The notes: a model not told the origin generated them from the letters alone. A DNA stretch of 64,000 nt from an uncultured delta proteobacterium (GCA_963786945.1 CAWBAO010000001.1:65976-129975); one strand, 5' to 3'; counted from the stretch's first letter, positions 19,227 through 50,577 are shown. Program-made: numbers and translations.

Positions 19227-19483
19227 TCCGGAGCCCGGCGGCGTCGTGGTGCCGCTGCTGCTTCCGCCGCCACAGGCGAACAGGAGGAGGGAGGAACCAA
19301 CCACCGCCACCAGCGTCGAGGTTCGGATCTTCATGTGATGCCTTTCAGTCGGGCCGACCACCGCCCGCTCAGCCGACATGGGCGGGCCTATATGCGGCGG
19401 GGAGCGCCAGCGCCCGGTTCGATGGAGCCCGTCCGGCTCCCCGGAACCCGCGGACCGCACCCGGGTGGAACACCCGGCACGGG

Positions 19484-30788: not shown

Positions 30789-31394
30789 TCAGGGCACCTG
30801 CCCCAGCCCCTCGCGCGCCGAGACCTGGTCCGGGGCGTAGAGCAGCACCGCCTCGAAGGCCTCGCGCGCCTCCTTGTTGCGCCCCTGCTTGAGCAGCGAC
30901 CACCCCAGCCCGGTGCGCATCTCGGCGCTGGCCGGCCAGCCCGCCAGGGCCCGCCGGTAGAGCGCCTCGGCCCGGGCCCACTGGGCCTGGCTGTACTGGA
31001 TCCAGGCCAGCCGCGACACGGCGGTGAAGTCGCCGGGCGCCAGCGCCAGGGCCTCCTCGCCCATCCGCTCGGCGTCCTTCCAGCGGCGCAGCGCCATGAG
31101 CGGGAGCATGGCCCCGAGCCGGGCCTCCACCGCAGACGGCTCCAGCGCCACCGCCCGCTGGTAGGCCTCGGCCGACGGGGCGTGCTGGCCGGCCAGGTGG
31201 AGGAGCCACCCCTTGCGGAGCTGGGCCACGTAGGTCCCGCCCGCCGGCCCCAGCCGCTCCAGGAGCTGGACGGCGCCGCCGTAGTCGCCGCGGGCCTCGG
31301 CCAGGTAGGACTGCCGGTAGATGTCGGGGACGCCGTCGGCCGCACCGGCGGCCGGGGCGAGGAGCAGCAGGGCGAGCGGCAGGGCGATGCGCAT
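30789..31394 (-). CDS. secreted TPR-repeat protein
   Basis: This is the tail of ORF 30789..31838. It has a signal peptide (MRIALPLALLLLAPAAGA) and repeated TPR-like A..Y..AL...P helices. GAGGTG lies 7 nt upstream of the ATG at 31394. Confidence 0.75.
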   Translation of the reverse strand: MRIALPLALLLLAPAAGAADGVPDIYRQSYLAEARGDYGGAVQLLERLGPAGGTYVAQLRKGWLLHLAGQHAPSAEAYQRAVALEPSAVEARLGAMLPLMALRRWKDAERMGEEALALAPGDFTAVSRLAWIQYSQAQWARAEALYRRALAGWPASAEMRTGLGWSLLKQGRNKEAREAFEAVLLYAPDQVSAREGLGQVP

Positions 31395-31414
31395 GGCGGG
31401 CACCTCGGTGTGGT

Positions 31415-32542
31415 TCAGAAGGAGAAGGAGAGGCCGGCGGAGAGCCGGGTGGCCGTGGTGTCGGCCGGGGGATCCGAGGGGGGCTGGGGCCGCCAGTCCT
31501 CCAGGTCGGCGCCCAGCCAGGCGCGGGCGTGGTGGCCCAGCGGGAGGGAGGCCTGGAGCCGCACCGCCCACCGGAGCTCGTCGGGGACGTCGTAGAGCAC
31601 CCGCGCCTCGAGGTCGGCCGGCCGGAGCTGCGGGCCGTACTCGCCCGAGAGCGCGAGGCTCCACGGGCCGCGCCACTCGACGCCGGCCAGCGCGGCCGTG
31701 GTGGTGGCGCCATCGGCCAGCTGGGTGCGGACCCCGGCGCGGAGCGCCAGGTGCTCGCCGAGCGGCAGCGCCGCCGTCCCCTCCAGCTGGTAGACCGTCA
31801 GGTCCTCGTACCAGCTGGTCGCCGCCACGGCCCGCCATTCCAGCCCGTACCGGACCATGGCCGAGAGGCCGGCGACGACGCCTCCGTAGCCGGAGATCTG
31901 CTCGACGCCCGCCGTGGTGGTCGCCGCCCGGGAGATGGCCGCGCCCCGCAGCGCCACCTGCCAGCCCGGCGAGGCCAGGCCGAGCGAGAGGTGGAGCTCG
32001 TGCTGGAGCGTCGCCCCGGCGGTGGTGCCGCCGCCCTGCATGCGCCCGCGCCCTCCGCCGCTGGTGAGGCTGGAGGGCGTGCCGAGCATCCGGTACAGCC
32101 CGCCCACGGTCCAGCGATCGGCGAGCTGGGCATCGACGGTGAGCACGCCGGCGTAGAGATCGCTCCCGGCCGACGGGCCGGAGTAGCTGGTGCCGGCGCC
32201 GTAGATCCCGATCCAGACCTGGTCGGGCGCGCCCCGGCCCAGCTGCGCGTCCTCGAGGCCACGCCGCGCCTCGTCCGAGCCGGGCTCGAGATCCAGGACA
32301 CGGCGGTACTGGGCCTCGGCCGCGGCGTACTCGCCGGCGCGGAGCAGGTAGTAGGCCCGGGCCAGCTGCAGCGGGAGGTCCTGCGGCCAGGTGGCGGCCG
32401 GCCCCTCCAGCGACCTCGCCGCCTCCAGGTAATGGCCGCCGGCGGCCTGCTGGCGGGCGCCCGCGAGGGCGTCCTCGTAGGCGTCGGCCCGGACCGCGGC
32501 CGGGGCGAGGAGCAGCAGCAGCAGCGCCACGGCCCTACCCAT
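31415..32542 (-). CDS. outer-membrane protein: N-terminal TPR region plus C-terminal beta-barrel-like domain
   Basis: It has a signal peptide (MGRAVALLLLLLAPAAVRA) followed by TPR-like helices. After that come alternating amphipathic strands ending in LSFSF, the terminal-Phe OMP signature. The ATG at 32542 follows GAGGAGG and overlaps the upstream gene by 8 nt. Confidence 0.7.
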   Translation of the reverse strand: MGRAVALLLLLLAPAAVRADAYEDALAGARQQAAGGHYLEAARSLEGPAATWPQDLPLQLARAYYLLRAGEYAAAEAQYRRVLDLEPGSDEARRGLEDAQLGRGAPDQVWIGIYGAGTSYSGPSAGSDLYAGVLTVDAQLADRWTVGGLYRMLGTPSSLTSGGGRGRMQGGGTTAGATLQHELHLSLGLASPGWQVALRGAAISRAATTTAGVEQISGYGGVVAGLSAMVRYGLEWRAVAATSWYEDLTVYQLEGTAALPLGEHLALRAGVRTQLADGATTTAALAGVEWRGPWSLALSGEYGPQLRPADLEARVLYDVPDELRWAVRLQASLPLGHHARAWLGADLEDWRPQPPSDPPADTTATRLSAGLSFSF

Positions 32543-34646
32543 CGGCCGCCTCCTCGACCCGCTCGGCCCGGTGGACCCGGGCGCCGAGGCGGACCTCCAG
32601 CGTCCGCGGGCCACCGGCGTCGAGGACCGCCAGCGTCTCGATGGGCTGGCGCCCGGCCCGGCCGCGACCGCGGACCTCGAGCAGCGCGCCGCGGCGCACC
32701 GCCTCGAGCGCCAGCGGGATGCCGCCCTCCGGGAGGAACGGCTCGGCCAGATCGGTCAGCCAGCGCACCCAGGCCGGCCGCAGGCGGCGGCGCGGCAGGA
32801 CGTCGTCCCAGGCCAGGCCGGGGGTCACCTCGTAGGGGACGCGCGGGGCGGCCGCGGCCAGCAGGTGGAGCACGCTCTCCCGCCGGCCGGTGTGGTCGAA
32901 GACCACGAACTGCCGCCCCTGGTTCTCGTACCAGAGCACCGCCCCCAGCGACGGCGACTCCAGCGTCAGCTCGCCCATCAGGCCGATGTGCGAGCCCACC
33001 GTCTCGCGGTGGACCCGGCCCGAGGGGCTGCGCACCTCGAAGGTGAGCTCCTGCCCGAGCGGGAAGGCGAAGGGGGCGGCGGCCTCGTCGCGGCGCTCCA
33101 GCGCCCGCACCGCCTGGCCCTCCCCCGGCACCAGCCAGCGGTGGAGCACCTGGCCCTCCTCGTCGCCGGTCACCACGTCGGAGAGCGTCAGCTCCAGGGT
33201 GGGGGCGCCGATGCGGGCGGTGGCCTGCAGCTGGAAGTGGAGGTGCGGCACGAAGGACCGGCCGCTGTTCCCGCAGCGGGCCAGCCGGGCCCCCTGCCGC
33301 ACCAGCTGCCCCTCGCGCACCTCGACCGAGCCGGGGGCCAGGTGGGCCACCAGCGAGAAGAGCCCCGGGCCGTGCTGCAGCAGGACCAGGTTGCCGTAGG
33401 GCTCGCGCGCGTTGCGCTCGCCGACCGCGTTGTCGGGGACGTCGGCCACCACCTTCACCACCGTGCCGTCGGCGGCGGCCAGCACCGGGAGGCGGTAGCA
33501 GCGGTAGTCGCGGACCTCCGCGCCGGCGCCGGTGTGGGTGCTGCCCCCGGCGCCGGCCACCTCGAAGTCGAGGGCGTAGCGCCAGGGGCCCTGGTGGGTG
33601 TGCTTCCCGTCCACGCCCTGCGTCACCGTCCAGCGCCCGGCGAAGGGCGGCGCGAAGCGCACCCCGAAGCCGGGGCCGAAGCGGGCCAGGCGGGTCCGGT
33701 AGTAGGCCAGGTTGGCCTCCGGGGTGCCGGCCACGAAGTCCACGGCCTTGGGGGCGCCGTCGCGGGTCCGCTGGCGCATGGCGGCCAGGGCCACCAGCAT
33801 GGTCACGTTGAAGGGGAGGATCAGGACCGGCAGGCCCAGCGGCCGGAGCAGCGCCAGGGCCCCGGCGGTGCCGAGCGAGGTGAGGAGCGCCGCCGCGCCG
33901 GCCAGCAGGAAGGCGGCCCGCTGCGGCACGAACCAGACCCCCCCGAGGGCCAGCGCCGCCAGCATGGCGTTGGCGTTCAGCACCAGCAGCGCCGGGTCGC
34001 TGGCGAAGGTGAAGACCCAGGTCGAGAGGGCGTGCGCCACGGCGAAGCCGAGCGCGGTGAGGAGGGTGGCGATGCGGCTGTGCAGGACCAGCGCCGCCAG
34101 CACCACGGCGCCGGCCAGGACGGTGGGCGAGAAGAAGATCACCCCCAGGCTGCGCAGGAAGAGGTCGGCGACCTCGGGCAGCCAGGCCGGGCCGTGGGCG
34201 GGGATGAGCTCGGGCGCGGCCCGGGCCACGATGCCCACGTAGGGGGCGGCCGCCAGCGAGAGCCAGGTGACCAGCACGAACGGGAGGGAGAGGAGCGGCA
34301 GGTAGAAGACCGCCCCCAGGGCCGACTCCAGCGCCGCCTCCAGGAACACCACCGCCACCACCGAGAGCAGCAGCAGGGCGGCGGTCCCCGGCCCGGGCTC
34401 GAAGAAGGTCCCCACCGCCAGGCCGACCAGCAGCGGGTTGTAGCCGTAGCGGCCGTGCGACGCGGCCGTCTCGGAGAAGCGGAGCAGCCGCACCAGCCCG
34501 TGGCCGGCCAGCACCGCCACCAGCCCGTGCAGGCCGGCGCGTGGCGACAGCGCCGAGGCGAGGAGCAGCAGCGCCCCCACGCCGCGGTGATCGGCGAAGA
34601 GGACCTGCGCGTAGGCGGAGAGGGTCGCGGAGGTCAGCCCAGCCAC
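32535..34646 (-). CDS. urea-transporter-family (UT) membrane domain fused to an M23 (LytM) peptidase domain plus a ~230-aa uncharacterised C-terminal domain
   Basis: This is the tail of ORF 32535..35987. The first ~300 aa are polytopic and UT-like (SAYAQVLF...GYNPLLVGLA). The M23 core follows (GNLVLLQHG...S..AHL...G..V..G..L..CGNSGRS..PHLHFQL). The GTG at 34646 follows GAGGAGG and overlaps the decarboxylase gene by 13 nt. Confidence 0.85.
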   Translation of the reverse strand: MAGLTSATLSAYAQVLFADHRGVGALLLLASALSPRAGLHGLVAVLAGHGLVRLLRFSETAASHGRYGYNPLLVGLAVGTFFEPGPGTAALLLLSVVAVVFLEAALESALGAVFYLPLLSLPFVLVTWLSLAAAPYVGIVARAAPELIPAHGPAWLPEVADLFLRSLGVIFFSPTVLAGAVVLAALVLHSRIATLLTALGFAVAHALSTWVFTFASDPALLVLNANAMLAALALGGVWFVPQRAAFLLAGAAALLTSLGTAGALALLRPLGLPVLILPFNVTMLVALAAMRQRTRDGAPKAVDFVAGTPEANLAYYRTRLARFGPGFGVRFAPPFAGRWTVTQGVDGKHTHQGPWRYALDFEVAGAGGSTHTGAGAEVRDYRCYRLPVLAAADGTVVKVVADVPDNAVGERNAREPYGNLVLLQHGPGLFSLVAHLAPGSVEVREGQLVRQGARLARCGNSGRSFVPHLHFQLQATARIGAPTLELTLSDVVTGDEEGQVLHRWLVPGEGQAVRALERRDEAAAPFAFPLGQELTFEVRSPSGRVHRETVGSHIGLMGELTLESPSLGAVLWYENQGRQFVVFDHTGRRESVLHLLAAAAPRVPYEVTPGLAWDDVLPRRRLRPAWVRWLTDLAEPFLPEGGIPLALEAVRRGALLEVRGRGRAGRQPIETLAVLDAGGPRTLEVRLGARVHRAERVEEAADG

Positions 34647-35980
34647 CCCGGCACCTCCTCCTGCGCCAGCAGCGTCTCCACCGACTCGCGCCGGCGGATC
34701 AGCCCGGGCTCGCCGCGCCGCGAGATCATCACCACGGCCGGGCGCTCGGTGATGAACTGCATCCACTGGGTCACGTTGTAGGCCCCGACGTTGCGGACCA
34801 CGATGCGGTCCCCGGGCGTGAGCGGCGGGAAGAGCAGCTGGTCGCGCACCACGTCGATGGCCATGCAGAGCGGCCCGTAGAGCACGGTCGGCTCCGGCGT
34901 CCCGGCGAACTCCTGCGCCGGCACCACGTCGTGCCGGTACCAGAAGGCCGTGAACAGGGAGTTGACCCCGGCGTCGAGGACCACCGCCCGGCGGCCATCC
35001 GCCAGCCGCTTGTTGGCGTGGACCGTGGTGATCAGGGAGCCGGCCTCGTCCACCAGGGCGCGCCCGGTCTCCAGGAAGATGACCGGCTCCTTCCCGCCGG
35101 GGAGCGCCAGCGCCGCCAGCCCCTCGGCGATGGCCTCGGCGTACTGGGCGAAGGAGGGCGTCACCTCCTCGCCGGGCAGGTACTGCGCGTGCAGCGTGTT
35201 GCGGGAGGCGAAGCCGCCGCCCAGGTCGATCCACTCGACCAGCACCCCGTGGTCCCGGGCCAGCCCGTTGGCCAGCTCGGCCAGCTTGCGCGCCTCCTGG
35301 CGGTAGGCGTCCACGTCCTGCACGAAGGTGCCGATGTGGGCGTGCAGGCCGGCCAGCTGGAGCACGCCGCCGGCCAGGATCCGGCGGACGGCGTCGAGCG
35401 CCTGCCCCGACTCGAGGTTGAAGCCGAAGCGCGACCAGGGCGGCGTGCCGGGGAGGGCCATGTTGACCCGGATGGCCACCTTGGGCCGGAGCTCCAGCCG
35501 GCGGGCCACGACCTCGGCGCGGGCCAGCTCGTCGAAGTGGTCGAGGTGGACCCGGGCGCCGGCGCGGAAGGCCTTCTCCAGGGCCGCCTCCGGCTTGTAG
35601 GGCCCGTTGAAGATGACCTCGGTGCCCGGCACGTGGCGCAGCGCCTTGTCGAGCTCCATCTCGCTCACCACCTCGGCCAGCGAGCCCTCGCGGTGCATCA
35701 CCTTGCAGATGGCGTCGAGGTAGTTGGTCTTGTAGGACCACGCCAGCCTGGCGGTCGGCAGCCGCGCCACCAGGGCCTCGCGCAGCTCGCGGTGGCGGGA
35801 CACCAGCGTCTTCTCGCTGAAGACGAAGAGCGGGGAGCCGTACCGCTCCACCAGGGCGGCCACCGGGACCCCGTCGATCTCGGTGAGGGGGCGCATGCTG
35901 GTGGCCCGGGAGAGCTTGTTCATCAGCCCGGGCTGGTGGCGCACCAGGGTGGGGCGGTCGTAGGCGGGCCTGGCGGTCAT
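34634..35980 (-). CDS. PLP-dependent decarboxylase, Orn/DAP/Arg decarboxylase (group IV) family
   Basis: It has a SYKTN PLP-lysine region, HIGT, a GGGF glycine loop, and a C-terminal beta-barrel with a GPLC motif. The ATG at 35980 overlaps the ATP-grasp stop (ATGA). Confidence 0.9.
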   Translation of the reverse strand: MTARPAYDRPTLVRHQPGLMNKLSRATSMRPLTEIDGVPVAALVERYGSPLFVFSEKTLVSRHRELREALVARLPTARLAWSYKTNYLDAICKVMHREGSLAEVVSEMELDKALRHVPGTEVIFNGPYKPEAALEKAFRAGARVHLDHFDELARAEVVARRLELRPKVAIRVNMALPGTPPWSRFGFNLESGQALDAVRRILAGGVLQLAGLHAHIGTFVQDVDAYRQEARKLAELANGLARDHGVLVEWIDLGGGFASRNTLHAQYLPGEEVTPSFAQYAEAIAEGLAALALPGGKEPVIFLETGRALVDEAGSLITTVHANKRLADGRRAVVLDAGVNSLFTAFWYRHDVVPAQEFAGTPEPTVLYGPLCMAIDVVRDQLLFPPLTPGDRIVVRNVGAYNVTQWMQFITERPAVVMISRRGEPGLIRRRESVETLLAQEEVPGWLG

Positions 35981-37053
35981 GTGTCACCTCGGGTGCGGGC
36001 CAGCTCGCCCTCGGTGCTGAGCGCCTGGAAGTCGTCCATGGAGGCGATCAGGTCGAGCGAGATGCGGACGAAGAGGGTGCCGGCGCGGAACTCGGTCATG
36101 GGGTCGACCGGCTCGCCGAGCGCCAGCCGGGCCACCGCCCAGGGGAGGTTCTGCCCGGCGCCCGAGGCCAGGTGGCACCAGGCCGGGAAGCGCGGGTTGA
36201 CCTCGATGAGCAGGTAGCGGTCCTCGGGGGTCTTCAGGATCTCCAGCTCGCAGGGGCCGCGCCACGAGGTGGCCGCGAAGAAGCGGCGGGCGGCCTCGAG
36301 GAGGTGGGGGTCATTGACCGCCACGCCGGCCCAGCCCTTCCCCTTGTCGGAGAGCAGCAGCTTCCTCATGGGGACCGCGCCGATCATGCCGCCGCGGCCG
36401 TCGCCGACCGCCACCACGTCGTACTCCTGGCCGGCGTGGAAGCGCTGCACGATGACCGGGAGTCCCCACCTCGCCACCACGGCGTGGAAGGCGGCGGCCG
36501 CCTCGTCCGGGCCATGGACCACGGTGGCGCCGTAGAAGACCCCCTTCACCACCAGCGGGTACGGCAGGTCGGAGGGCAGGCGATAGACCTCGGCCACGTC
36601 GGAGAGGACCTGCTGGACCGGCACGTCGAGGCCGGCCTTCCGCCCCAGCTCGGCGAGCCGCACCTTGGAGCGCAGGTCGTACTGCTCCCGCGTCGGGAGG
36701 AACATCCTGATCCCCAGCTCCCGGAGCTCGGGCTCGAGCGCGATGAACGCCGGCAGCTCGGAGTCGAGCGTCGGGATGATCACGTCGATGTGGCGGCGCT
36801 GGTGGATCTCCCGGAGGCGCGCACCGAGGGCCTCCACGCCCTGGCTCGGGTAGGGGATGAGCAGCCCGGCGTCGAGCCCGATCTCGGTCGAGTAGAGCCC
36901 GGAGTCGAGCGCGTCGTAGGCCAGCCCCAGCACCTTCCCCAGGAAGCCCGGCGCGGCGCGCAGCGATCGGATGACCGCGACGCCGGGGGCCGGGTTGTCC
37001 GTGGCGTTGAGCCCGGTGACCGCCACCGTGAACGACCGGAGCGGATCGCTCAC
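35977..37053 (-). CDS. ATP-grasp domain ligase (carboxylate-amine/peptide ligase type)
   Basis: This is the tail of ORF 35977..37401. It has a pre-ATP-grasp domain (AVTGLNATDNPAPGV), a P-loop-like VVKG region, EYDVV, and LIEVNPRFP Mg/ATP-site motifs. The GTG at 37053 overlaps the PqqD-like stop (GTGA). Confidence 0.85.
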   Translation of the reverse strand: MSDPLRSFTVAVTGLNATDNPAPGVAVIRSLRAAPGFLGKVLGLAYDALDSGLYSTEIGLDAGLLIPYPSQGVEALGARLREIHQRRHIDVIIPTLDSELPAFIALEPELRELGIRMFLPTREQYDLRSKVRLAELGRKAGLDVPVQQVLSDVAEVYRLPSDLPYPLVVKGVFYGATVVHGPDEAAAAFHAVVARWGLPVIVQRFHAGQEYDVVAVGDGRGGMIGAVPMRKLLLSDKGKGWAGVAVNDPHLLEAARRFFAATSWRGPCELEILKTPEDRYLLIEVNPRFPAWCHLASGAGQNLPWAVARLALGEPVDPMTEFRAGTLFVRISLDLIASMDDFQALSTEGELARTRGDT

Positions 37054-37316
37054 GGCTCGGTCCCGGCCGGCAGCCAGCCCTGCTCCCGCATCTGCAGGAG
37101 GTACTCGCGCACGTCGCGGGCCACGTCGGTGCCCGGCTCCACCTCGAAGGCCGCTCGCAGGGCGGCCTCGACGGCCTCGGGGGAGTCGCCGCGCCGCAGC
37201 GCCTCGAGGATGAACCGGCCGGTCTCGTTCAGGCTGTAGGTCTGTCCGCCGTACGGGTCGAAGACGAAGCCGCTCTCGCTCACGGCCAGGTCCCGAAGTC
37301 TGTGCCTCGCGTCCAT
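37050..37316 (-). CDS. PqqD-family protein (RiPP-recognition-element-like peptide chaperone)
   Basis: It is 88 aa. The pattern GFVFDPYGGQTYSLNETGRFILEALRRGDSPEAV...DVREYLLQMREQG matches the PqqD winged-helix profile as I remember it. The ATG follows GAGGGAG. Confidence 0.75.
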   Translation of the reverse strand: MDARHRLRDLAVSESGFVFDPYGGQTYSLNETGRFILEALRRGDSPEAVEAALRAAFEVEPGTDVARDVREYLLQMREQGWLPAGTEP

Positions 37317-37486: not shown

Positions 37487-37963
37487 TCAGATGGTCACGG
37501 TCTGCGCCGGCGGGAACAGCGGCAGCGGCGGCGGCGCCCCGAGCGGCGGATGGCCGGGCGGCAGGCGCGGCAACGCGCGGACTGGCGGGTGGCCCGGGGG
37601 AAGGCGCAGCGCGGCCCCGACGGGCGGGTGGCCCGGCGGGAGGTCCGGCTCGATCGCGATGGGCGGGTGGCCGGGCGGGAGGCCTGGAACGGCCGCGACG
37701 GGCGGGTGGCCGGGCGGGAGCCCCCTCATGGCCCCGATGGGCGGGTGGCCGGGCGGGAGGCACCCGGCGCCGTCGAGGGTCGGGGCGGCGTCGGAGCTCG
37801 CCGCGACTCCCATTCCGGCCAGGCAGGCGGCGACGATCAAGGCCCGAGCGCCGGCGCGCCGGTTCAGCCACGGCCGCCGTTCCGTGAGGCCACCGCCCGG
37901 TCCTGCTGCCGTCGCCAGCGCCAGACCGTCCACCCGCCCTCGACCACTCGCCGTCGTCGCCAT
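37487..37963 (-). CDS. exported His/Pro repeat protein (6 x LPPGHPP), candidate substrate/precursor of the downstream operon
   Basis: The ATG at 37963 lies 6 nt after GAGGAGG. It has a Tat-like TERRPWLN motif, then the hydrophobic ALIVAACLAGMGVAA and SSDA-A. Six exact LPPGHPP heptads follow. All nucleotide differences between the heptads are at third positions of this frame. Confidence 0.7.
   Translation of the reverse strand: MATTASGRGRVDGLALATAAGPGGGLTERRPWLNRRAGARALIVAACLAGMGVAASSDAAPTLDGAGCLPPGHPPIGAMRGLPPGHPPVAAVPGLPPGHPPIAIEPDLPPGHPPVGAALRLPPGHPPVRALPRLPPGHPPLGAPPPLPLFPPAQTVTI
37544..37759 (-). repeat. six-unit 39-nt (13-aa) tandem coding repeat, invariant LPPGHPP plus variable hexapeptide
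   Basis: The plus strand shows GGGCGGGTGGCCGGGCGGGAG-type 21-mers every 39 nt. The variable spacers are IGAMRG, VAAVPG, IAIEPD, VGAALR, VRALPR and LGAPPP. Confidence 0.95.
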
Positions 37964-38109: not shown

Positions 38110-39678
38110 TCAGGGCGCCGTGGTGAACGGCCAGCCGTCGCTCTGGGCGATCCGGTAGGCCGGCGCCGTCGCGTAGAACCCCCCCGGACCGGCGGCCTCC
38201 TCCACCGTCGAGAAGGCGGAGCTGCCGCGAATCCGCCAGGTGAAGAGGGTGCTCGGGGGGAGCGGGAAGGCCGCCGGGATGGTCAGCGACTGGGCCGCGG
38301 TGAGGACGTCATAGCCCGGCGTCCCGACCGGCCCACGGAACGAGGCCACGTAGACGGACGGATCGGGCATCGAGTGCCACCTGAACGTCGTCCCGGGCGC
38401 GACCCCCGTCGCCCCGGCGGCCGGCTGGTCCTGGGTGGGGAGGCCCCCGAAGACGATCGCCACCCCCGCCGCGTCGGGGGCGAGGCCGTGCCGGTGCACC
38501 TCCTGGTAGGCCATCCCCGCGTAGTCCTGCCGGGCCACGAGGTCGATGGTGCTGCCGAGGACGGCGGGCGTGGGGATGCTGAACGGCGAGGTGAAGCCGT
38601 TGGAGGGGAAGGAGGACGGATCGCCCGGCGGCGGGAGGACCCGGATCCGCGCGCCGTCCTGGAAGACGGCGAACACGCTGATCCCCACCGTGTTGTAGGG
38701 CGGGTTCACGATGGTCCCACCGATCGACTTGGCGGCGACCACGCCGAGCGCGAGGTCCTGCCCGGAGAGCGCCGCGCCGTCCACCAGCGTCACGCCGGCG
38801 CGGAAGCCGTAGCCGTCGTAGCCCACCGGCCGCTTGCCGGCGTCGACCGTCCACTGGAGCGCGTGGAGCTGGCCCGCCACCGACGAGGGGCCGGCCCACC
38901 GGGTCCCGAGCAGGAAGGTGGAGGCGCCGGCCTGGACCGGGCAGGTTCCGGTCGCCTCGGCGGACTTGAAGGTGACGCCCGCCTCGCGCCCGGCGGGCTG
39001 GGGGAAGCCGGCGCCGCCGGAGAGCGCGCCGGTCACGTCGACGCTGCGCGGGTAGCCCGGATCGGCGTCCAGGAAGAGGACCAGCGTCGGGTCCATCCTC
39101 CGCAGGCCCGGGTAGGCGCTGGTGAGCAGCCCGTCGGGCGCGGTGGCGGTGATGTCATAGGGCACCGTCACGCCGGGGAGCGAGAAGGCCCCCTGGGCGT
39201 CGGTGGTGGCACTGGCGGATCCCACCCGCACCGAGGCTCCCGCGACCGGGGCGCCGCCCGGGGCGATCACCTTCCCGGCCAGGACCTGGACGGCCGGATC
39301 GATGGTGATGGTCGCCGAGGCCGTCAGGCCTCCCACCGTGGCGGTCAGGGTCGCCGTGGTCATCGTGGCGACGGTGGCCGGCGGCGTGTAGAGCACCGGG
39401 ACGCCCTGGGTCCGGTCGAGGCTGCCCGGGCCGACGAGGGTCCAGTTCACCATCTCCGTGCAGTTGCTCGCGCCACCGCCGAAGCTGATGGCCGCCCCGC
39501 CCGCCGTCACCCGCGCCGACGACGGGTAGATGCCGGCCACGGAACCGGCAGGGCACCCTCCCCCGCCGTCGTCGCTGCCGCCTGCCGAGCAGCCCGCCAG
39601 GCATGCGACCAGCAGCAGGGCTCCCTTCGACGCGATCCGGGTCATGGCCGCCACCTTTCGTGCGCGGATCGCCTTCAT
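38110..39678 (-). CDS. lipoprotein of unknown function with carboxypeptidase-regulatory-like beta-sandwich segment
   Basis: It has a lipobox (LLLVACLAGC) and a segment GKVIAPGGAPVAGASVRVGSASATTDAQGAFSL. The start is ATG 39678 or ATG 39645. Confidence 0.7.
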   Translation of the reverse strand: MKAIRARKVAAMTRIASKGALLLVACLAGCSAGGSDDGGGGCPAGSVAGIYPSSARVTAGGAAISFGGGASNCTEMVNWTLVGPGSLDRTQGVPVLYTPPATVATMTTATLTATVGGLTASATITIDPAVQVLAGKVIAPGGAPVAGASVRVGSASATTDAQGAFSLPGVTVPYDITATAPDGLLTSAYPGLRRMDPTLVLFLDADPGYPRSVDVTGALSGGAGFPQPAGREAGVTFKSAEATGTCPVQAGASTFLLGTRWAGPSSVAGQLHALQWTVDAGKRPVGYDGYGFRAGVTLVDGAALSGQDLALGVVAAKSIGGTIVNPPYNTVGISVFAVFQDGARIRVLPPPGDPSSFPSNGFTSPFSIPTPAVLGSTIDLVARQDYAGMAYQEVHRHGLAPDAAGVAIVFGGLPTQDQPAAGATGVAPGTTFRWHSMPDPSVYVASFRGPVGTPGYDVLTAAQSLTIPAAFPLPPSTLFTWRIRGSSAFSTVEEAAGPGGFYATAPAYRIAQSDGWPFTTAP

Positions 39679-39926: not shown

Positions 39927-40925
39927 ATGGACAGGGCTCCGCGGACCGACCTGCGACCCCTCGATCCGCGGCCGTCGCGGCTCCTCGGCGACACCTTCCT
40001 CGCCGACGTCCAGGCCGGGCTGGCCCGCCGGCCGCGCGCGCTCCCGTCGAAGTACTTCTACGACGACAGGGGAAGCCGCCTCTTCCAGTGGATCAGCAGG
40101 CTGCCCGACTACTACCTGACGCGGGTCGAGCGGGAGATCCTCGACCGCCACGGAGGGGCCATCGTCGCGCCGCTGTGCGGACGGCCCTGCACCGTCGTCG
40201 ACCTCGGCGCCGGGGACGGGCACAAGACCCTGCGGCTGCTCCGGCGGCTGGCACGGGCCGGGACCGGCGTGGCCTATGCCCCGGTCGACCTCTCCCCGGC
40301 GGCGCTCGAGGAGGCGGCCGGCCGGGTGCGTGCCCGGCTGCCCGGCTTGCCGGTGCGGCCGGTTCGAGCCACCTACGCGAGCGCGCTGCGGCAGCTCGCC
40401 GGCCTGCCGCAGGCCGATCCGAGGCTGGTCCTCTTCCTCGGCTCCAGCATCGGCAACCTCGAGCATGCCGCCGCGCGCTCCACGCTGCTCGAGCTTCGCC
40501 GCGCGCTCCGCCCCGGCGACCACCTGCTGGTCGGCTTCGATCTCGTCAAGCCCTGGTCGCTGCTCCACCGCGCCTACGACGACCCGCCCGGCGTGACGCG
40601 CGCCTTCAACCTCAACCTGCTGGCGCGCATCAACCGGGAGCTCGGCGCCGACTTCGACCTCTCGGCGTTCCGGCACGTCGCCACCTGGGATCCGGTGCGG
40701 CCGGCCATGGAGAGCTGGCTCGAGTCCACCCGGTCCCAGGTCGTCCGGCTCGCCGGCCGCCCCTACCGGTTCGCGCCGGGCGAGCGGATCCACACCGAGA
40801 TCTCCTGCAAGTACTCCGACGCGCAGGTCACGGCGTTCGGCGCCGACGCGGGCTTCACCGAGGCGGGCCGCTTCTCCGACCCGGACCGGTGGTTCGTCGA
40901 CGCGCTCTGGAGGGTCGACCCGTGA
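39927..40925 (+). CDS. egtD: L-histidine N-alpha-methyltransferase (ergothioneine biosynthesis)
   Basis: It has LPSKYFYDDRGS.LF..I..LP.YYLTR.E..IL, DLGAGDG and GSSIGN motifs typical of EgtD. Confidence 0.92.
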   Translation: MDRAPRTDLRPLDPRPSRLLGDTFLADVQAGLARRPRALPSKYFYDDRGSRLFQWISRLPDYYLTRVEREILDRHGGAIVAPLCGRPCTVVDLGAGDGHKTLRLLRRLARAGTGVAYAPVDLSPAALEEAAGRVRARLPGLPVRPVRATYASALRQLAGLPQADPRLVLFLGSSIGNLEHAAARSTLLELRRALRPGDHLLVGFDLVKPWSLLHRAYDDPPGVTRAFNLNLLARINRELGADFDLSAFRHVATWDPVRPAMESWLESTRSQVVRLAGRPYRFAPGERIHTEISCKYSDAQVTAFGADAGFTEAGRFSDPDRWFVDALWRVDP

Positions 40926-41477: not shown

Positions 41478-42735
41478 ATGGCTGAGCCGGCGCGGGGCCG
41501 GCCCCTGGACGGGCCAGGCGCGCTGGCCGAGCGGCTGGCCCGGGTGCGGGCCCAGACCTCGCGGCTGTGCGCCCCCCTGGCCGTCGAGGACTACGTGGTC
41601 CAGTCGATGCCGGACGCCAGCCCGGCCAAGTGGCACCTGGCCCACACCTCCTGGTTCTTCGAGACCTTCGTGCTCGGGCCGCACCTGCCCGGGTTCCAGC
41701 CGTGGCGGGCCACCTGGGCGCCGCTCTTCAACTCCTACTACGTGGCCGCCGGTCCCCGGCATCCGCGCGCCGAGCGCGGGCTGCTGACGCGCCCCACCGT
41801 CGCCGAGGTGCAGGCCTACCGGGCCTGGGTGGACGAGCGGATGCAGGCGTTCCTGGCATCGCCCGCGGCCGATCGGCCCGAGGTGGCCGCGCTGGTGGAG
41901 CTGGGGCTGCACCACGAGCAGCAGCACCAGGAGCTGCTGCTCACCGACCTCCTGCACGCGTTCTCGATGAACCCGCTCAAGCCGGCCTACCTGGAGGCGA
42001 CGCCGCCGCCCTCGACCGCCGCGCCGCTCCGCTGGCTGGAGCGGCCGGGCGGCCTGGTGCGGATCGGCCGGGAGCAGGCGGGATTCGCCTTCGACAACGA
42101 GCGCCCGGCGCCACCTGGTGCACCTCGAGCCCTTCCGGCTCGCCTCGCGGCCGGTCAGCGCCGGCGAGTTCGCGGAGTTCATCGCCGACGGGGGCTACCG
42201 GCGGCCCGGGCTGTGGCTGTCCGACGGCTTCGCCGCCGCGCAGGCGGGCGGCTGGCAGGCCCCGCTCTACTGGGAGCGCCGCGACGGTGCGTGGCGCCGC
42301 TTCACGCTCCACGGCGACGTCGCGGTCGACCCGGCCGCACCGGTCACGCAGGTGAGCTACTACGAGGCCGATGCCTTCGCCCGCTGGGCCGGGGCGCGCC
42401 TGCCGACCGAGGCCGAGTGGGAGAGCGTGGCCGGGGAGCAGCCGGTGGCCGGCCAGTTCGTGGAGGACGGCGTCCTGGTGGCGGTCGCGGCGGGCGGTGC
42501 GGCCCCCCTCTTCGGCGGCGCCTGGACCTGGACGGGGAGCCCGTACGTCGCCTACCCCGGCTTCACCCCCGCGCCCGGGGCCGTGGGCGAGTACAACGGC
42601 AAGTTCATGGTGAACCAGCTGGTCCTGCGCGGCGGCTCGTGCCTCTCGCCTCGCGACCACCTGCGCGCCACCTACCGCAACTTCTTCCCGCCACACGCCC
42701 GCTGGCAGCTCGCGGGCATCCGGCTGGCCCGCTGA
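41478..42735 (+). pseudogene. egtB: ergothioneine biosynthesis sulfoxide synthase EgtB, interrupted by a single-base frame break near 42108
   Basis: The N-terminal half (frame of 41478) has the DinB-like KWHLAHTSWFFETFVL and runs to ...FAFDNERP. The C-terminal half (frame of 42118) continues RHLVHLEPFRLASRPVS...YNGKFMVNQLVLRGGS...TYRNFF (FGE-sulfatase domain). Skipping one G at ~42108 joins them. Confidence 0.85.
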
Positions 42736-42849
42736 GGCGCACGGTGGGGACGACCCCGCGGGCGAGCCTGCGGCGAGGGTGCTGCACGGACTGACCGTCG
42801 CTGCTGGGCGCTGGACACCCGGCCCCCGCTCGGACAGACTCCGGCTGCC

Positions 42850-43746: not shown

Positions 43747-44700
43747 ATGGCGACCATCCGGCAGAAGGCGCAGCCTCGCGCCGCCCCCGCGCAGGAACGC
43801 CGCAGCCACCTCGACTGGGGCCACCTGCGCTTCTTCCTCGAGCTGGTGCGGACCGGGAGCCACGCCCGCGCCGCCGGGCGCCTGGGCGTGGACCGCAACA
43901 CCGTGGCGCGCCACGTGGCGGCGCTGGAGGTGGAGCTGGGGCTGCCGCTCTTCGAGCGCGGGCCGCAGGGCTGGATCCAGACGGTGGCCGGCCAGGAGCT
44001 GGCCGAGCTGGCCGGCCGGGTCGAGGAGGACGTGCTGGCCCTGGCCCGCCACGCCGACGCCCGCGATCCGGCGCTGCGCGGCACGGCGCGGCTCACCACC
44101 GTGCCCCACCTGGCCACCCACCTGCTGGCCCCCGAGCTCCCGGCGCTGCGCCGGCGCCACCCCGAGCTGCTGCTGGAGGTGCTCGCCGACGCCCGGGCCT
44201 TCGACCTGTCGCGCCGGGAGGCCGACGTGGCGATGCGCCTGGGCCGCCCCGGCGACTCGGGCCTGGTGGCGCGTCGGCTGTCCGAGCTGGCCTTCGCCTT
44301 CTACGCGGCCGCCGCCACCGAGGCCGGGCGCCGCGGCGCGGTGGACACCGGCACCGACCCCTTCCTGGCCGACCACACCGACCTGCCGCAGGAGCGCTGG
44401 CTCGACCAGCTGGCGCCCCAGCCCCGGGTCGTCTTCCGCTGCAACAGCACCACCGCGCTCCACGCCGCGGCGCGCGACGGTCTCGGCGTGGTCCTGCTCC
44501 CCTGCTACATCGGCGACGCCGACCCGGTGCTGCGGCGGCTCGACGGGCCGGAGCCGCCCTCGCAGGAGATCTGGCTGCTGGTGCACGGCGACCTGCGCCG
44601 CACGCCGAGGGTCCGGGCCGTCATCGACTGGGTGGACGAGCTGGTGGGGCGGGCGAGACCGGCGCTGCTGGGGCGGCGCGACCCTCACGGACCGGCTTGA
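43747..44700 (+). CDS. LysR-family transcriptional regulator
   Basis: It has an HTH (FFLELVRTGSHARAAGRLGVDRNTVARHVAALE) and a LysR substrate-binding domain. Confidence 0.92.
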   Translation: MATIRQKAQPRAAPAQERRSHLDWGHLRFFLELVRTGSHARAAGRLGVDRNTVARHVAALEVELGLPLFERGPQGWIQTVAGQELAELAGRVEEDVLALARHADARDPALRGTARLTTVPHLATHLLAPELPALRRRHPELLLEVLADARAFDLSRREADVAMRLGRPGDSGLVARRLSELAFAFYAAAATEAGRRGAVDTGTDPFLADHTDLPQERWLDQLAPQPRVVFRCNSTTALHAAARDGLGVVLLPCYIGDADPVLRRLDGPEPPSQEIWLLVHGDLRRTPRVRAVIDWVDELVGRARPALLGRRDPHGPA

Positions 44701-44788
44701 ATCCCTTGCATTCGCGGCTCCAATCGGCCGACACTTTTCTCCCCGCTGCGCCACCCCCGAGCGCCCGAACCAGGAGCCAAGGAAACCC

Positions 44789-46099
44789 ATGAACAGGTCA
44801 AAGACGGCGTTGTCCCGATGGTCCTGTGCCCTCTCCCTCCTCCTCTTCTCCACCACCGCCCTCGCCCAGGCTCCGGCCGCGGCCCCGGCCGAGCAGAAGC
44901 CCTTCAAGATCGGCGTGGTCACCTTCCTCTCCGGCGCCGCCGCCGGCCCGTTCGGCGTCCCGGCCCGCAACAGCGCCGAGGTGCTGGTCGAGGCCCTCAA
45001 TGCCGGCAAGGTGCCCGGCGCCTATGCCAAGAAGGGGCTGGGCGGCCGCCCCATCGAGCTGGTCTTCATCGACGAGGCCGGCGGCGCCACCAAGCAGGTG
45101 AGCGAGTACCGCGACATCGTGCAGCGCCAGAACGTCGACGCCGTGATCGGCTACATCTCGAGCGGCGACTGCCTGGCGGTGGCGCCGGTGGCCGAGGAGC
45201 TGAAGAAGCTCACCCTCCTCTTCGACTGCGGCACGCCGCGCATCTTCGAGGACGGCAACTACAAGTACGTCTTCCGCACCGCGCCGCACGCCACCCTCGA
45301 CAACGTGGCGGCGGCCCGCTACGTGCTCGAGGTGAAGCCCAAGCTGAAGAAGGTCGCGGGCATCAACCAGAACTACGCCTGGGGCCAGGACTCCTGGAAC
45401 GACTTCGAGGCCGCCCTCAAGGCGCTCAAGCCCGACGTCACGGTCACGACCTCGCAGATGCCCAAGCTCGGCGCAGGCCAGTACGGCGCCGAGATCTCGG
45501 CCCTGATGGCCGGCAGCCCCGAGGTGATCCACTCCAGCTTCTGGGGTGGCGACCTCGACGCCCTCGTCCTGCAGGCCGCCCCGCGCGGGCTCTTCAAGAA
45601 GAGCACGGCGGTGCTCACCGCCGGCGAGACCGCCATGTACAAGCTGGCCGGGCAGCTCCCCGACGGCACGCTCATCGGCGCCCGCGGCGCCAACGGCGTC
45701 TTCGCGCCGGACAACGAGCTCAACCGCTGGTTCCGGACCACCTACACGGACCGCAACAGCCTGCCGCCCGTCTACCCGTCCTACCGCATGGCCCAGGCCA
45801 TCCTCGGCCTCAAGAGCGCGTACGAGAAGGCCCAGGGCGCCGGCGCCGAGGCGCCGTCCCAGGACCAGGTCATCGCCGCCTTCGAGGGGCTGACGTTCGA
45901 GTCGCCGAGCGGGACGGTCAAGATGGCGCTCGGGAAGGGCCACCAGGCCGTGTCGGAGGCGGTCTACGGCACCGTGAAGAACGTGGGCGGGAAGATCACC
46001 TTCGTGAACGTCAAGCGCTACCCGGCCGACCAGGTGCTGCCGCCGGAGGGCGTGAAGAGCGCCGACTGGATCAAGACCGCGCTCAAGCCCGCCAGGTAG
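44789..46099 (+). CDS. ABC transporter substrate-binding protein (Liv/amide-urea type, Peripla_BP_6-like)
   Basis: It has a signal peptide ending in ALAQA and KIGVVTFLSGAAAGPFG. It precedes the Liv-type permease genes. Confidence 0.9.
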   Translation: MNRSKTALSRWSCALSLLLFSTTALAQAPAAAPAEQKPFKIGVVTFLSGAAAGPFGVPARNSAEVLVEALNAGKVPGAYAKKGLGGRPIELVFIDEAGGATKQVSEYRDIVQRQNVDAVIGYISSGDCLAVAPVAEELKKLTLLFDCGTPRIFEDGNYKYVFRTAPHATLDNVAAARYVLEVKPKLKKVAGINQNYAWGQDSWNDFEAALKALKPDVTVTTSQMPKLGAGQYGAEISALMAGSPEVIHSSFWGGDLDALVLQAAPRGLFKKSTAVLTAGETAMYKLAGQLPDGTLIGARGANGVFAPDNELNRWFRTTYTDRNSLPPVYPSYRMAQAILGLKSAYEKAQGAGAEAPSQDQVIAAFEGLTFESPSGTVKMALGKGHQAVSEAVYGTVKNVGGKITFVNVKRYPADQVLPPEGVKSADWIKTALKPAR

Positions 46100-46138
46100 G
46101 CGCGCCCCGACCACGTCCACCAGGAGGGCTGGCGTCAC

Positions 46139-47035
46139 ATGAGCACGCTCATCGCCGTCCTGGTGGACGGGGTCATCTACGCCTCGTGGCTCTTCATCAT
46201 CGCCGCGGGGCTGACCATCATCTACGGCGTCATGCGCATCCTCAACATGGCGCATGGCAGCCTCTACGCCCTGGGCGCCTACACCGCCGCCTCGCTGGCC
46301 GGCGCCTGGCTCCGGGCCGGCTTCCCGCCCATGTGGAGCTACGCCGTGCTGGTGGTGTCGGCGCTGCTGGTGGGACTGGTGGTGGGGCCGCTCATCGAGC
46401 GTGGGCTGCTGCGCTTCTGCTACGGCCGGGACGAGGTGGTGCTGGTGCTGGTCACCTACGCCCTCTTCCTCATCCTCGAGGACGCCATGAAGCTGGTGTG
46501 GGGGGTCGAGGCCTGGTTCGTCTCCGAGCCCTACGGCCTGCTCGGCATCGTCGAGTTCGGGCCGCTCTCCTACCCGGTCTACAGCGCGGTGATGGTGGTG
46601 GCGGCCGTGGCGGTCGGCCTGGCGCTCCGCTGGGGCATCTACGGCACCCGGCAGGGCAAGCTGCTGGTGGCGGTGATCCACGACCGGGAGGTGAGCGCGG
46701 CGCTGGGCATCAACGTGAACCGCATCTTCCTGGTGACCTTCATGATGGGCACCACGCTGGCGGCGCTGGGCGGCGCGCTCACCGCCCCGACCGTCTCGGT
46801 GGTGCCGGGGATGGGGGTCGAGACCATCGTGCTGGCCTTCGCCGTGGTGGTGATCGGCGGCCTGGGGAGCATGCCCGGGGCCGCCATCGGCTCGATCATC
46901 GTCGGGCTGGTCCGTTCCGGCGCGGTGCACTGGCTGCCGGAGGTCGAGCTCTTCAGCATCTACCTGGTCATGGCCCTGGTCCTGGCCTTCCGGCCCCGCG
47001 GCCTGTTCGTCGCGGTCGAGGCGCGCAAGATATGA
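46139..47035 (+). CDS. branched-chain amino acid-type ABC permease (LivH-like)
   Basis: It is a polytopic protein with an N.AHGS.Y.LGAY motif. Confidence 0.9.
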   Translation: MSTLIAVLVDGVIYASWLFIIAAGLTIIYGVMRILNMAHGSLYALGAYTAASLAGAWLRAGFPPMWSYAVLVVSALLVGLVVGPLIERGLLRFCYGRDEVVLVLVTYALFLILEDAMKLVWGVEAWFVSEPYGLLGIVEFGPLSYPVYSAVMVVAAVAVGLALRWGIYGTRQGKLLVAVIHDREVSAALGINVNRIFLVTFMMGTTLAALGGALTAPTVSVVPGMGVETIVLAFAVVVIGGLGSMPGAAIGSIIVGLVRSGAVHWLPEVELFSIYLVMALVLAFRPRGLFVAVEARKI

Positions 47036-49393: not shown

Positions 49394-49413
49394 CCCGGGA
49401 AGGAGCGACCCAC

Positions 49414-50541: not shown

Positions 50542-50577
50542 GCCACCCGCCTTCCCGTCCCAGCAGAGGAGACCACC

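Follow-up and report, generated by a model that had tools for sequence, protein, structure and literature searches.

A widespread six-gene cassette uniting a PqqD-family protein, an ATP-grasp ligase, and a FigC-like decarboxylase, and its possible role in an envelope-spanning small-molecule pathway

The genes for a PqqD-family protein, an ATP-grasp ligase, and a PLP decarboxylase in a 64,000-nt stretch of DNA from an uncultured delta proteobacterium (referred to here as the window) are part of a widespread six-gene cassette. As a widely inherited operon with conserved gene order, whose products span the envelope and include a narrow-pore channel, the cassette differs from a typical peptide natural-product cluster. 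We tentatively favor the reading that it encodes a self-contained envelope-spanning small-molecule pathway and not a classical RiPP cluster. It represents a large uncharacterized system: the cassette-specific ligase occurs in 363 or more genomes at species level, the majority of them from Myxococcota, no curated NCBIfam family covers the cassette, and a literature search found no paper describing it. The combination of a UT channel fused to a cytoplasmic M23 or sirtuin domain with a ligase–decarboxylase pair suggests that the channel transports something other than urea, and the candidate product is an amine- or amide-type metabolite, possibly a polymer. To our knowledge, ligate-then-decarboxylate chemistry has so far been known only from the rhizoferrin and butirosin pathways. 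If the PqqD-family protein binds the tail of an enzyme, as discussed below, the occurrence of PqqD next to tailoring enzymes would no longer imply a RiPP, which matters for genome mining.

Organization and distribution of the cassette

The genes of the cassette in the window, together with two features of the decarboxylase, are as follows.

37050..37316, minus strand: PqqD-family protein of 88 aa, an RRE-type peptide-binding domain (PF05402, E = 8e-14)
35977..37053, minus strand: ATP-grasp ligase of 358 aa, with its GTG start within the GTGA overlap (PF15632, PRK12767-like)
34634..35980, minus strand: FigC/FslC-like PLP decarboxylase of the alanine-racemase fold, 448 aa (PF02784, E = 3e-28; PF00278, E = 2.5e-14)
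35924-35980, minus strand: N-terminal extension of the decarboxylase, residues 1–19, absent from FigC and LysA
35945..35962, minus strand: codons of the leader-like motif Y7-D-R-P-T-L12 of the decarboxylase
32535..34646, minus strand: fusion of a UT-fold channel and an M23 domain, 703 aa (PF03253, E = 4e-44; PF01551, E = 3e-16)
31415..32542, minus strand: secreted TPR protein with a C-terminal outer-membrane beta-barrel-like region (signal peptide; weak TPR_14/TPR_19)
30789..31403, minus strand: secreted TPR protein of 204 aa (signal peptide; several TPR families)

A preliminary description of the window had presented the PqqD, ligase, and decarboxylase genes as a translationally coupled unit of three. 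The coordinates, the shared minus strand, and the overlaps were all confirmed: CCGTGAGCG is the junction with the GTGA overlap and ACATGACC is that with the ATGA overlap, both read directly from the sequence, and a third-position GC of 0.95–1.0 backs the three reading frames. The trio is real, but the unit is larger, the UT-M23, TPR, and outer-membrane genes having been overlooked. The GTG start of the UT-M23 gene at 34646 is preceded by the ribosome-binding site GGAGGAGG, and the gene overlaps the stop of the decarboxylase gene by 13 nt. Since 4-base overlaps are frequent in operons, they carry little weight by themselves, but the tight spacing is kept across related loci. The gap between the PqqD and ligase genes has a median of 0 nt (not above 10 nt in 64 of 79 loci), and that between the ligase and decarboxylase genes a median of −4 nt (10 nt or less in 61 of 73).

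The order PqqD, ligase, decarboxylase, UT-M23, TPR recurs in 72–80 of 80 genome loci, mostly from Myxococcota, and in approximately 65 of 80 metagenome loci, as counted by reading the locus listing; at least 555 decarboxylase relatives were confirmed in metagenomes. The complete genomes with the cassette include that of Sorangium sp. So ce726. Clustering of the ORFs across the 80 genome loci revealed no further conserved gene family. Sister systems possess two ligase modules, with a sirtuin in place of M23. In one locus (P0247), the ATP-grasp and decarboxylase domains form a single fusion protein, still preceded by PqqD. The conserved coupling and this natural fusion indicate that the ligase and the decarboxylase are functionally linked, and the retention of PqqD beside the fusion means that this protein must do more than just tether the two enzymes.

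The decarboxylase and the ligase

The best characterized relative of the decarboxylase is FigC (7kh2; 222 bits, 33% identity), whereas LysA structures scored 131 bits or less. The enzyme carries the SYKTN lysine, the GGG loop, and the Cys-Met loop. The Cys-Met pair of the catalytic loop is shared with FigC, whereas LysA has Cys-Asp/Glu at this position (Cys-Glu in M. jannaschii LysA). That the decarboxylase is the housekeeping LysA of ordinary primary metabolism, with unrelated neighbors, is accordingly very hard to believe: the lysA model TIGR01048 does rank second in NCBIfam, but its score of 208.3 bits lies under the cutoff of 297.9 and FigC is far above any LysA, the DAP-binding residue beside the catalytic Cys is lost, and the gene is in strict synteny with those for PqqD, the ligase, and UT. 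The specialized nature of the enzyme, as proposed earlier, was thus borne out. Both specificity-helix residues of FigC, T327 and Y331, are conserved in the decarboxylase alignment. Because the citrate-binding residues of FigC (H357, R387, and N389) are replaced with I, Q, and M, respectively, in the window enzyme and the cutoff of the FslC model NF041039 is missed (228 bits, cutoff 500), the enzyme is predicted from its sequence to work like FigC but not to be an N-citrylornithine decarboxylase.

FigC belongs to a clade (with SbnH, AcsE, MccE, and BtrK) whose members use tethered amino acids as substrates, that of FigC/FslC being an amino acid tethered via its side chain (PMC7857480). This kinship therefore backs a logic in which ligation is followed by decarboxylation. 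BtrK itself is detectable as a homolog (97 bits).

The match of the ligase to PF15632 is 35 bits, and its K170, E284, N286, and R288 (EVNPRF motif) are invariant. In a Foldseek search with the AF2 model (pLDDT 86), the best match was 2pn1, whose function is unassigned, followed by CPS, biotin carboxylases, L-amino-acid ligases, and Ddl. The best matches in NCBIfam, PDB-sequence, and Foldseek searches (PRK12767, CPS, 2pn1, and L-amino-acid ligases) put the enzyme in no primary-metabolism clade. Two other candidate assignments were rejected on the same searches. The matches of the ligase contained no model or structure of a graspetide (MdnB/MdnC-type) maturase, and they contained no RimK/LysX, as would belong to a LysW/LysX amino-group carrier system; in addition, the small carrier of such a system ends in a conserved acidic C-terminus, whereas the C-termini of the PqqD proteins are unconserved.

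The ligate-then-decarboxylate idea, which had been put forward for the window with a peptide as the carrier, remains the best reading in view of the FigC-like decarboxylase, the unaffiliated ATP-grasp enzyme, the conserved coupling, and the fusion, but its peptide carrier is unsupported. In the rhizoferrin pathway of Francisella (FslA/FslC, or FigA/FigC), side-chain ligation likewise comes first and a PLP decarboxylase of the alanine-racemase fold acts next (PMC7857480). The ligase there is an NIS synthetase, whereas the window cassette has an ATP-grasp enzyme; the MFS exporter of that pathway is missing from the cassette, which has an extra PqqD protein, the UT-M23 fusion, and the TPR proteins. 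The logic of butirosin biosynthesis (BtrI/BtrJ/BtrK/BtrG) is also similar, with an ATP-grasp ligase and then an alanine-racemase-fold decarboxylase acting on side-chain-tethered glutamate. A hydrolase-type enzyme later removes the protecting group in that pathway, and its counterpart in the cassette would be the M23 or sirtuin domain, which is fused to a membrane channel. Unlike the butirosin ligase, the window ligase is not demonstrably BtrJ-like, and the acyl carrier protein of butirosin has no conserved counterpart in the cassette among the 80 genome loci. A PP-binding domain was also absent from the called genes of the listed variant loci.

The PqqD-family protein and the decarboxylase tail

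The solved structures nearest to the PqqD-family protein are the lasso B1 RREs TfuB1 (E = 2e-10) and TbiB1 (E = 1e-6). Its conserved D68, F72, L76, and N30 coincide in the alignment with the leader-groove positions of PbaB1/LppB, which grip [Y/W]xxPx[L/V] (PMC13381572). The helix 3 Asp/Phe/Leu and the strand Asn of the lasso B1 RREs (TfuB1, TbiB1, PbaB1, and LppB), to which it is most similar, are thus kept (PMC13381572, PMC6784204), and the product of 37050..37316 is a PqqD domain with the leader-binding groove residues of an RRE. The cassette differs from lasso systems in having no lasso cyclase, B2 protease, or precursor gene, and the YxxPxL leader motif is here conserved and exposed at one place only, the N-terminus of the 448-aa decarboxylase.

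This N-terminal tail displays the motif [Y/W]-E/D/Q-x-P-x-[L/I/F] in all 74 of 74 genome loci. Every scorable metagenome locus has aromatic-xxP-x-[ILVF] at a fixed distance, the aromatic residue being mostly Y or W and otherwise F. The motif was found in 27 of 35 representatives with a long N-terminus as against 2 of 61 with a short one (chance, 1.2%). Three tail-less relatives (P0252, P0255, and P0259) have neither PqqD nor ligase nearby. The tails are degenerate in two PqqD-containing loci (P0257 and P0270), and in one tail-bearing locus (L122) the 5.6 kb upstream contain neither PqqD nor ligase. Taken by itself, the pattern counts for little, because the same regular expression also matches conserved buried strands (ligase W196, decarboxylase Y47, and M23 Y384). 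The best candidate partner of the PqqD/RRE protein is nevertheless the leader-like tail of the decarboxylase itself, which, judging from these alignments, it could plausibly bind.

As for the peptide that PqqD had been supposed to carry, no conserved precursor gene was found within the cassette or close to it, either across the 80 genome loci or in the window. Searches of the 80 genome loci gave no recurring small ORF of at least 15 aa upstream of PqqD or at least 35 aa anywhere in the flanks, and no recurring motif-bearing ORF of 10–60 aa; no precursor or scaffold-peptide gene was found within the 64,000-nt window. In those variant loci for which the called genes were listed, the operon has no room for a precursor. 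Pearlins and the fosfazinomycin scaffold FzmZ, which has a YxxP motif at its N-terminus, resemble the proposed cassette pathway in that RiPP recognition machinery is reused for a small molecule (PMC13622209). These pathways encode a separate scaffold peptide, whereas none was found in the window cassette.

The channel fusion and the TPR proteins

The fusion protein is composed of a UT domain (residues ~7–289), a basic linker, an M23 domain (~340–480), and a beta-rich C-terminal region (~500–700). In the AF2 model (pLDDT 84), the UT part gave a target TM-score of 0.83 against dvUT (3k3f), and the M23 part matched LytM domains. The M23 residues H351, D360, H425, H435, H468, and H470 (the last two forming HxH) show little or no variation. 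Of the zinc and catalytic motifs, the first departs from the usual pattern, with H-A-L-D spacing as against HxxxD, and the usually conserved H357 is a tyrosine in the window protein. Across loci, UT is fused to M23 or SIR2, and in some M23 is missing altogether. The hydrolase domain is presumably cytoplasmic, because the sirtuin needs NAD and a basic linker is present.

The UT fold is shared with dvUT, a member of the SLC14 family, and the window channel differs from dvUT-type channels by its fusion to a cytoplasmic M23 or sirtuin domain. The UT part scored 95.4 bits against TIGR03441 (urea transporter equivalog), whose cutoff is 274.6, and UT genes of the window type always adjoin the ligase and decarboxylase genes and never urease or urea-carboxylase genes. 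Known UT pores admit neutral solutes the size of urea, which speaks against the passage of an amine, since such a product would be charged.

The TPR/beta-barrel-like protein (31415..32542), which has a signal peptide, ends with ...SFSF. Its gene is present in 39 of the 80 genome loci, lying upstream of PqqD in some and downstream of UT-M23 in others, and the gene for the 204-aa TPR protein is a conserved downstream neighbor in 73 of 80.

Alternative explanations

A true RiPP or scaffold-peptide pathway, in which PqqD binds a [Y/W]xxP precursor whose gene lies elsewhere or has escaped detection because of its short length or variability, seems unlikely to us. Its steps would be side-chain ligation, trimming by the decarboxylase, and release by M23 or the sirtuin, as in scaffold chemistry of the pearlin or fosfazinomycin type. 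An RRE of the lasso B1 type with intact groove residues is consistent with such a pathway, a cytoplasmic peptidase or sirtuin would suit a peptide substrate, and the 21–22-residue YxxP scaffold peptide of the fosfazinomycin cluster was itself missed by earlier mining (PMC13622209). However, the small-ORF searches were empty in the genome loci and the window, the close gene packing leaves no space within the operon, and a peptide would not fit through the narrow UT pore. The carrier might otherwise be the decarboxylase tail, which PqqD would present to the ligase for acylation of K22 with the side-chain carboxyl group of Glu or Asp; the decarboxylase would then process the tethered residue like BtrK on BtrI, and the sirtuin or M23 would remove the N-epsilon-acyl group. 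We consider this quite improbable. K22, located 15 residues past the tail aromatic residue, is invariant in the 74 genome loci and is found at +15 in most metagenome subfamilies, sirtuins are N-epsilon-acyl-lysine deacylases, many M23 enzymes cleave side-chain amine amides, and the BtrJ/BtrK pair is a precedent. On the other hand, K22 aligns with K3 of FigC (MSKLS), which works without PqqD, so that the lysine probably belongs to the fold itself. Its equivalent is missing in several subfamilies, including P0247, P0248, P0254, and L100, and the net chemistry would be the formation of a simple amine at high ATP cost.

The channel and the M23 domain could also suggest an uptake or envelope-editing system, which we regard as improbable. 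In the case of uptake, a small amide or urea-like solute would enter via the outer-membrane barrel and UT and be trapped by ATP-dependent ligation; in the case of editing, peptidoglycan precursors would be modified on the cytoplasmic face, for example at a side-chain-linked residue of the stem peptide. Channels are frequently paired with trapping enzymes, M23 and Ddl-like ligases are cell-wall enzymes, Ddl is among the structural neighbors of the ligase, and the cassette shows broad vertical conservation. In contrast, Mur, Fem, and other cell-wall genes are not conserved nearby in the 80 genome loci, a sirtuin can substitute for M23 or M23 can be absent, and the ligase has no link to urea.

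Proposed pathway

In the self-contained small-molecule pathway that we tentatively favor, the ATP-grasp enzyme would amide-link an amino acid via its side chain to an acceptor, leaving the alpha-amino and alpha-carboxyl groups free. The decarboxylase, which belongs to the FigC type and whose substrate is a prediction, would strip the alpha-carboxylate from the tethered amino acid, resulting in an omega-amino amide unit of the putrescine, cadaverine, GABA, or beta-alanine type. The PqqD/RRE protein would present no separate precursor peptide; instead, it would clamp the aromatic-xxP-x-[ILVF] tail of the decarboxylase, a copy of the lasso-leader recognition motif, and may thereby keep the ligase and the decarboxylase in one complex. 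The cytoplasmic amide hydrolase tethered to the inner-membrane UT channel (M23 in the window cassette and a sirtuin in sister systems) would then cleave an amide and free or unmask the small product at the channel mouth. The product would exit via the channel and the TPR/beta-barrel module, if transport runs outward and not inward.

Two bolder readings, which even taken together appear doubtful, are that the RRE recognizes a leader-like tail built into an enzyme, RiPP recognition machinery then serving to put together a metabolic complex without any ribosomal substrate, or that repeated ligate–decarboxylate cycles build a polyamide. In the latter, more radical reading, the polymer would be of the poly-GABA or poly-beta-alanine type without side chains, a "natural nylon". 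In each cycle, the ligase would place Glu or Asp, through its side-chain carboxyl group, on the terminal amine, and the decarboxylase would restore a terminal amine. The slim chain could thread the slot-like UT pore, be cut from its primer by M23 or the sirtuin, and leave by the TPR protein and an AlgE-like barrel. The counterpart of the TPR/beta-barrel-like protein in one sister system gave a weak match to Alginate_exp.

Operon organization and conservation

The preliminary description had proposed that genes encoding a PqqD-family protein, an ATP-grasp ligase, and a PLP decarboxylase are translationally coupled through GTGA and ATGA overlaps. The junctions in the window read CCGTGAGCG and ACATGACC, and thus both overlaps are real; together with the third-position G+C values of 0.95–1.0, which back all three reading frames, these junctions bear out the proposed coupling. 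The three-gene unit, however, turned out to be incomplete, as it extends on to a gene for a urea-transporter-fold channel (UT) domain joined to an M23 peptidase and to two TPR genes. The decarboxylase stop and the GTG start of the UT-M23 gene overlap by 13 nt, and GGAGGAGG precedes this start.

Genes of the cassette
37050–37316, minus strand: PqqD-family gene (PF05402, E = 8e-14)
35977–37053, minus strand: ATP-grasp ligase gene (GTG start)
34634–35980, minus strand: Orn/DAP/Arg-type PLP decarboxylase gene
GTG start at 34646, minus strand: UT domain joined to M23 peptidase (703 amino acids)
31415–32542: TPR protein with a signal peptide and a beta-barrel-like C-terminus
30789–31403: secreted TPR protein

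A promoter and terminator scan of the window DNA, which has a G+C content of about 74% and is most closely related to Anaeromyxobacter MAGs, found no element, and PADLOC gave no matches to anti-phage defence systems.

A genome scan using the ligase alignment as the query found relatives in 363 species-level genomes, and the best 80 loci were examined. The decarboxylase was present in all 80, PqqD in 79, the TPR protein in 73, and UT-M23 in 72. The hosts were Anaeromyxobacter, Polyangia, Nannocystis, Sorangium sp. So ce726, Bradymonadales, and a few Thermodesulfobacteriota. The cassette genes in these loci lie on one strand in a constant order with median gaps of 0 nt between PqqD and the ligase and −4 nt between the ligase and the decarboxylase, the TPR/barrel gene being located directly upstream of PqqD or after UT-M23. 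ORF clustering revealed no further conserved gene family in the flanks of the 80 genome loci, and no fusion of PqqD to another domain was found in these loci or among the homologs listed. A second scan, seeded with distant relatives of the decarboxylase, gave 80 metagenome loci, about 65 of which (a count read from the locus listing) carry the same core.

Variant systems

The contexts of the distant decarboxylase relatives also provided variants of the cassette. At locus L089, an identical six-gene cassette adjoins a gene whose product carries a Por_Secre_tail domain, used for sorting in type IX secretion, and this neighbor suggests a Bacteroidota-like host. Loci L081–L083 encode a natural ATP-grasp-decarboxylase fusion of 871 amino acids (8001–10616 in L081), which PqqD still precedes; the interdomain linker retains the motif AYVRPSI, and a 637-residue protein without a Pfam match follows in place of UT-M23. 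Sister systems possess either two ATP-grasp paralogs or a single tandem double ATP-grasp protein of 710–719 residues. In the two-ligase systems, a canonical sirtuin takes the place of M23, either fused to the UT domain or following it (L092, 6051–7922; L096, 9337–10986; L084, 3156–5006; and about a dozen metagenome loci), and the sirtuins of L092, L096, and L084 carry a GIPDYRG motif. The outer-membrane protein of L092 (7919–9394) showed a weak match to Alginate_exp (E = 0.001).

The comparison of the variants therefore defines a stable core of PqqD, one or two ligases, the decarboxylase, and the UT channel, accompanied by TPR and outer-membrane proteins. The conserved coupling and the variants establish a functional link between the ligase and the decarboxylase. 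At its C-terminus, the UT channel bears an amide hydrolase domain whose kind varies, M23 or sirtuin. Sirtuins require NAD, and the linker following UT contains many Arg and Lys residues; for these two reasons, we infer that the UT-attached hydrolase faces the cytoplasm. Residues ~500–703 of UT-M23 (32535–33149, minus strand) form a beta-rich C-terminal domain with a confident model (pLDDT ~85–93), for which neither a Pfam match nor a structural match in the top 50 Foldseek matches was found. The domain is present in most UT-M23 homologs with weak sequence conservation.

The decarboxylase and the ligase

With the lysA model, the decarboxylase fell short of the cutoff (208 versus 297.9 bits); its score with the NCBIfam model of FslC was 228 bits. 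Its best match in the PDB was the N-citrylornithine decarboxylase FigC/FslC (7kh2; 222 bits, 33% identity), while the LysA structures scored at most 131 bits and BtrK 97 bits. The tight clustering with LysA that the preliminary description had named as a refuting result was thus not observed, and we regard the identification of the enzyme as a housekeeping LysA as extremely improbable; no second lysA-like gene was found within the window. The enzyme has kept its catalytic lysine and cysteine as well as the glycine loop. A methionine follows the catalytic cysteine, as in FigC; in LysA and ODC this position holds an acidic residue, Asp or Glu, to which the free distal amine binds. The enzyme also retains T327 and Y331, located on the specificity helix of FigC, but at the three positions proposed to contact citrate (H357, R387, and N389 in FigC) it has isoleucine, glutamine, and methionine, respectively (PMC7857480). 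FigC falls in a clade with SbnH, AcsE, MccE, and BtrK, enzymes that decarboxylate an amino acid whose side chain is already linked to another moiety (PMC7857480). The window decarboxylase most likely acts in the same manner on a less charged partner.

The catalytic motifs of ATP-grasp enzymes are invariant across the ligase family. Sequence and structure searches gave only generic neighbors: 2pn1 (function unknown), carbamoyl-phosphate synthetase, biotin carboxylases, Ddl, and the L-amino-acid ligases RizA and BL00235. The ligase does not belong to the graspetide maturases or to the RimK/LysX enzymes, and homology does not point to a particular substrate.

The PqqD groove and the search for a precursor

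The nearest solved relatives of the PqqD family are the lasso B1 RREs (the peptide-binding domain type of PqqD-family proteins) TfuB1 (E = 2e-10) and TbiB1. In PbaB1/LppB, a groove composed of a helix-3 Asp/Gln, a Phe dividing two pockets, a Leu/Met, and a strand Asn holds the leader motif [Y/W]xxPx[L/V/I/F/A] (PMC13381572). D68, F72, L76, and N30 of the PqqD protein align with these groove residues and are invariant or nearly so, and therefore the protein probably binds a [Y/W]xxP-type peptide.

The preliminary description had supposed this peptide to be a RiPP substrate. Four small-ORF searches failed to support the claim: no candidate emerged from ORFs of at least 15 residues located up to 700 nt upstream of PqqD in the 80 genome loci, from all-against-all clustering of ORFs of at least 35 residues in the same loci, from motif-bearing ORFs of 10–60 residues outside known genes in these loci, or from motif-bearing ORFs with coding-like GC3 within the window. 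In many loci, the genes abut each other. We consider a RiPP or scaffold pathway whose precursor is encoded away from the cassette doubtful, though conceivable.

Two local candidates for a precursor were rejected. Directly upstream of PqqD, 37487–37963 (minus strand) encodes a 158-residue protein that begins with a signal-peptide-like segment and contains six to seven 13-residue repeats (LPPGHPPVxAxxx), with a 39-nt tandem DNA repeat at 37519–37761. The gene is not kept beside the cassette in other loci, and its product, with no Pfam or NCBIfam match, may be a periplasmic His/Pro-rich metal-binding protein. The other candidate, a series of short, high-GC3 ORFs at 16–19 kb that mimics a precursor-gene cluster, is antisense to three tandem Met/Gly/Thr-rich secreted paralogs (16036–19300, minus strand; runs such as MMGGTMMQ).

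The N-terminal tail of the decarboxylase

The decarboxylase has approximately 19 extra N-terminal residues compared to FigC and LysA, reading K-P-x-[Y/W]-E-R-P-x-[L/I]-V-R-H-Q-x-G. In 74 of 74 genome loci, the tail contains the motif [Y/W]xxPx[L/I/F]. After clustering at 50% identity, the motif occurred within the first 15 residues in 27 of the 35 representatives whose N-terminal region spans 40–60 residues, versus two of 61 with short N-termini (chance expectation, ~1.2%). In the scorable metagenome loci, aromatic-xxP-x-[ILVF] occurs at a fixed distance of 39–45 residues from the downstream GSP anchor, with Tyr or Trp as the aromatic residue in most loci and Phe in the others, and the rest of the tail diverges. 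The motif-less relatives P0252, P0255, and P0259 have no PqqD or ligase gene nearby.

There were some exceptions: the relatives P0257 and P0270 have a nearby PqqD gene but a degenerate tail, and locus L122 has the tail, with PqqD not found in the 5.6 kb upstream. Conserved buried strands in other parts of the operon proteins match the bare regular expression as well, and covariation between the tail Tyr/Trp and the RRE pocket residues gave no clear signal. We therefore treat binding of the decarboxylase tail by the RRE as a well-motivated hypothesis, possible but somewhat short of probable. A conserved lysine lies 15 residues after the aromatic residue; it aligns with K3 of FigC and is probably part of the fold, and we judge a role as a carrier site very unlikely.

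Proposed mechanism

In the mechanism that we propose as the most likely one, the ligase would attach an amino acid via its side chain and the decarboxylase, of the class indicated by the FigC comparison, would then strip the alpha-carboxylate, with PqqD organizing the enzyme complex through the tail. At the mouth of the channel, M23 or the sirtuin may release or unmask a small product, which would cross the inner membrane via the UT pore and the outer membrane via the TPR/barrel module. The same proteins might instead constitute an uptake or cell-wall editing system, which we judge unlikely. The proposed chemistry resembles that of FslA/FslC and BtrJ/BtrK. The RRE, the hydrolase-fused UT channel, and the outer-membrane module together are a new combination. 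No NCBIfam model specifically names any cassette protein, and the literature search found no paper pairing PqqD with a urea transporter or combining a urea transporter, M23, and ATP-grasp.

Neighboring genes

Upstream of the cassette, 38110–39678 (minus strand) encodes a lipoprotein with a CarboxypepD_reg domain and the lipobox LLVACLAGC; a similar CarboxypepD_reg protein lies near the L092 cassette, which may be a coincidence. Divergent from the lipoprotein gene is an ergothioneine-type pair consisting of an EgtD-like histidine methyltransferase (39927–40925, plus strand; PF10017, E = 2e-98) and an FGE-sulfatase/EgtB-like protein (~41478–42794, plus strand), with a glyoxalase-fold gene between them on the opposite strand. 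An Urt-like ABC transporter 8 kb away was rejected as a cassette part and is treated as unrelated, since synteny with the cassette is not seen in other loci. This region (43747–51942, plus strand) comprises a LysR regulator and then the Urt/Liv-type transporter, for which UrtB to UrtE were the top NCBIfam matches, all below the cutoffs. A Zn-dependent alcohol dehydrogenase and a succinate-semialdehyde-dehydrogenase-like enzyme follow, and the region may serve the uptake and catabolism of amides or amines.
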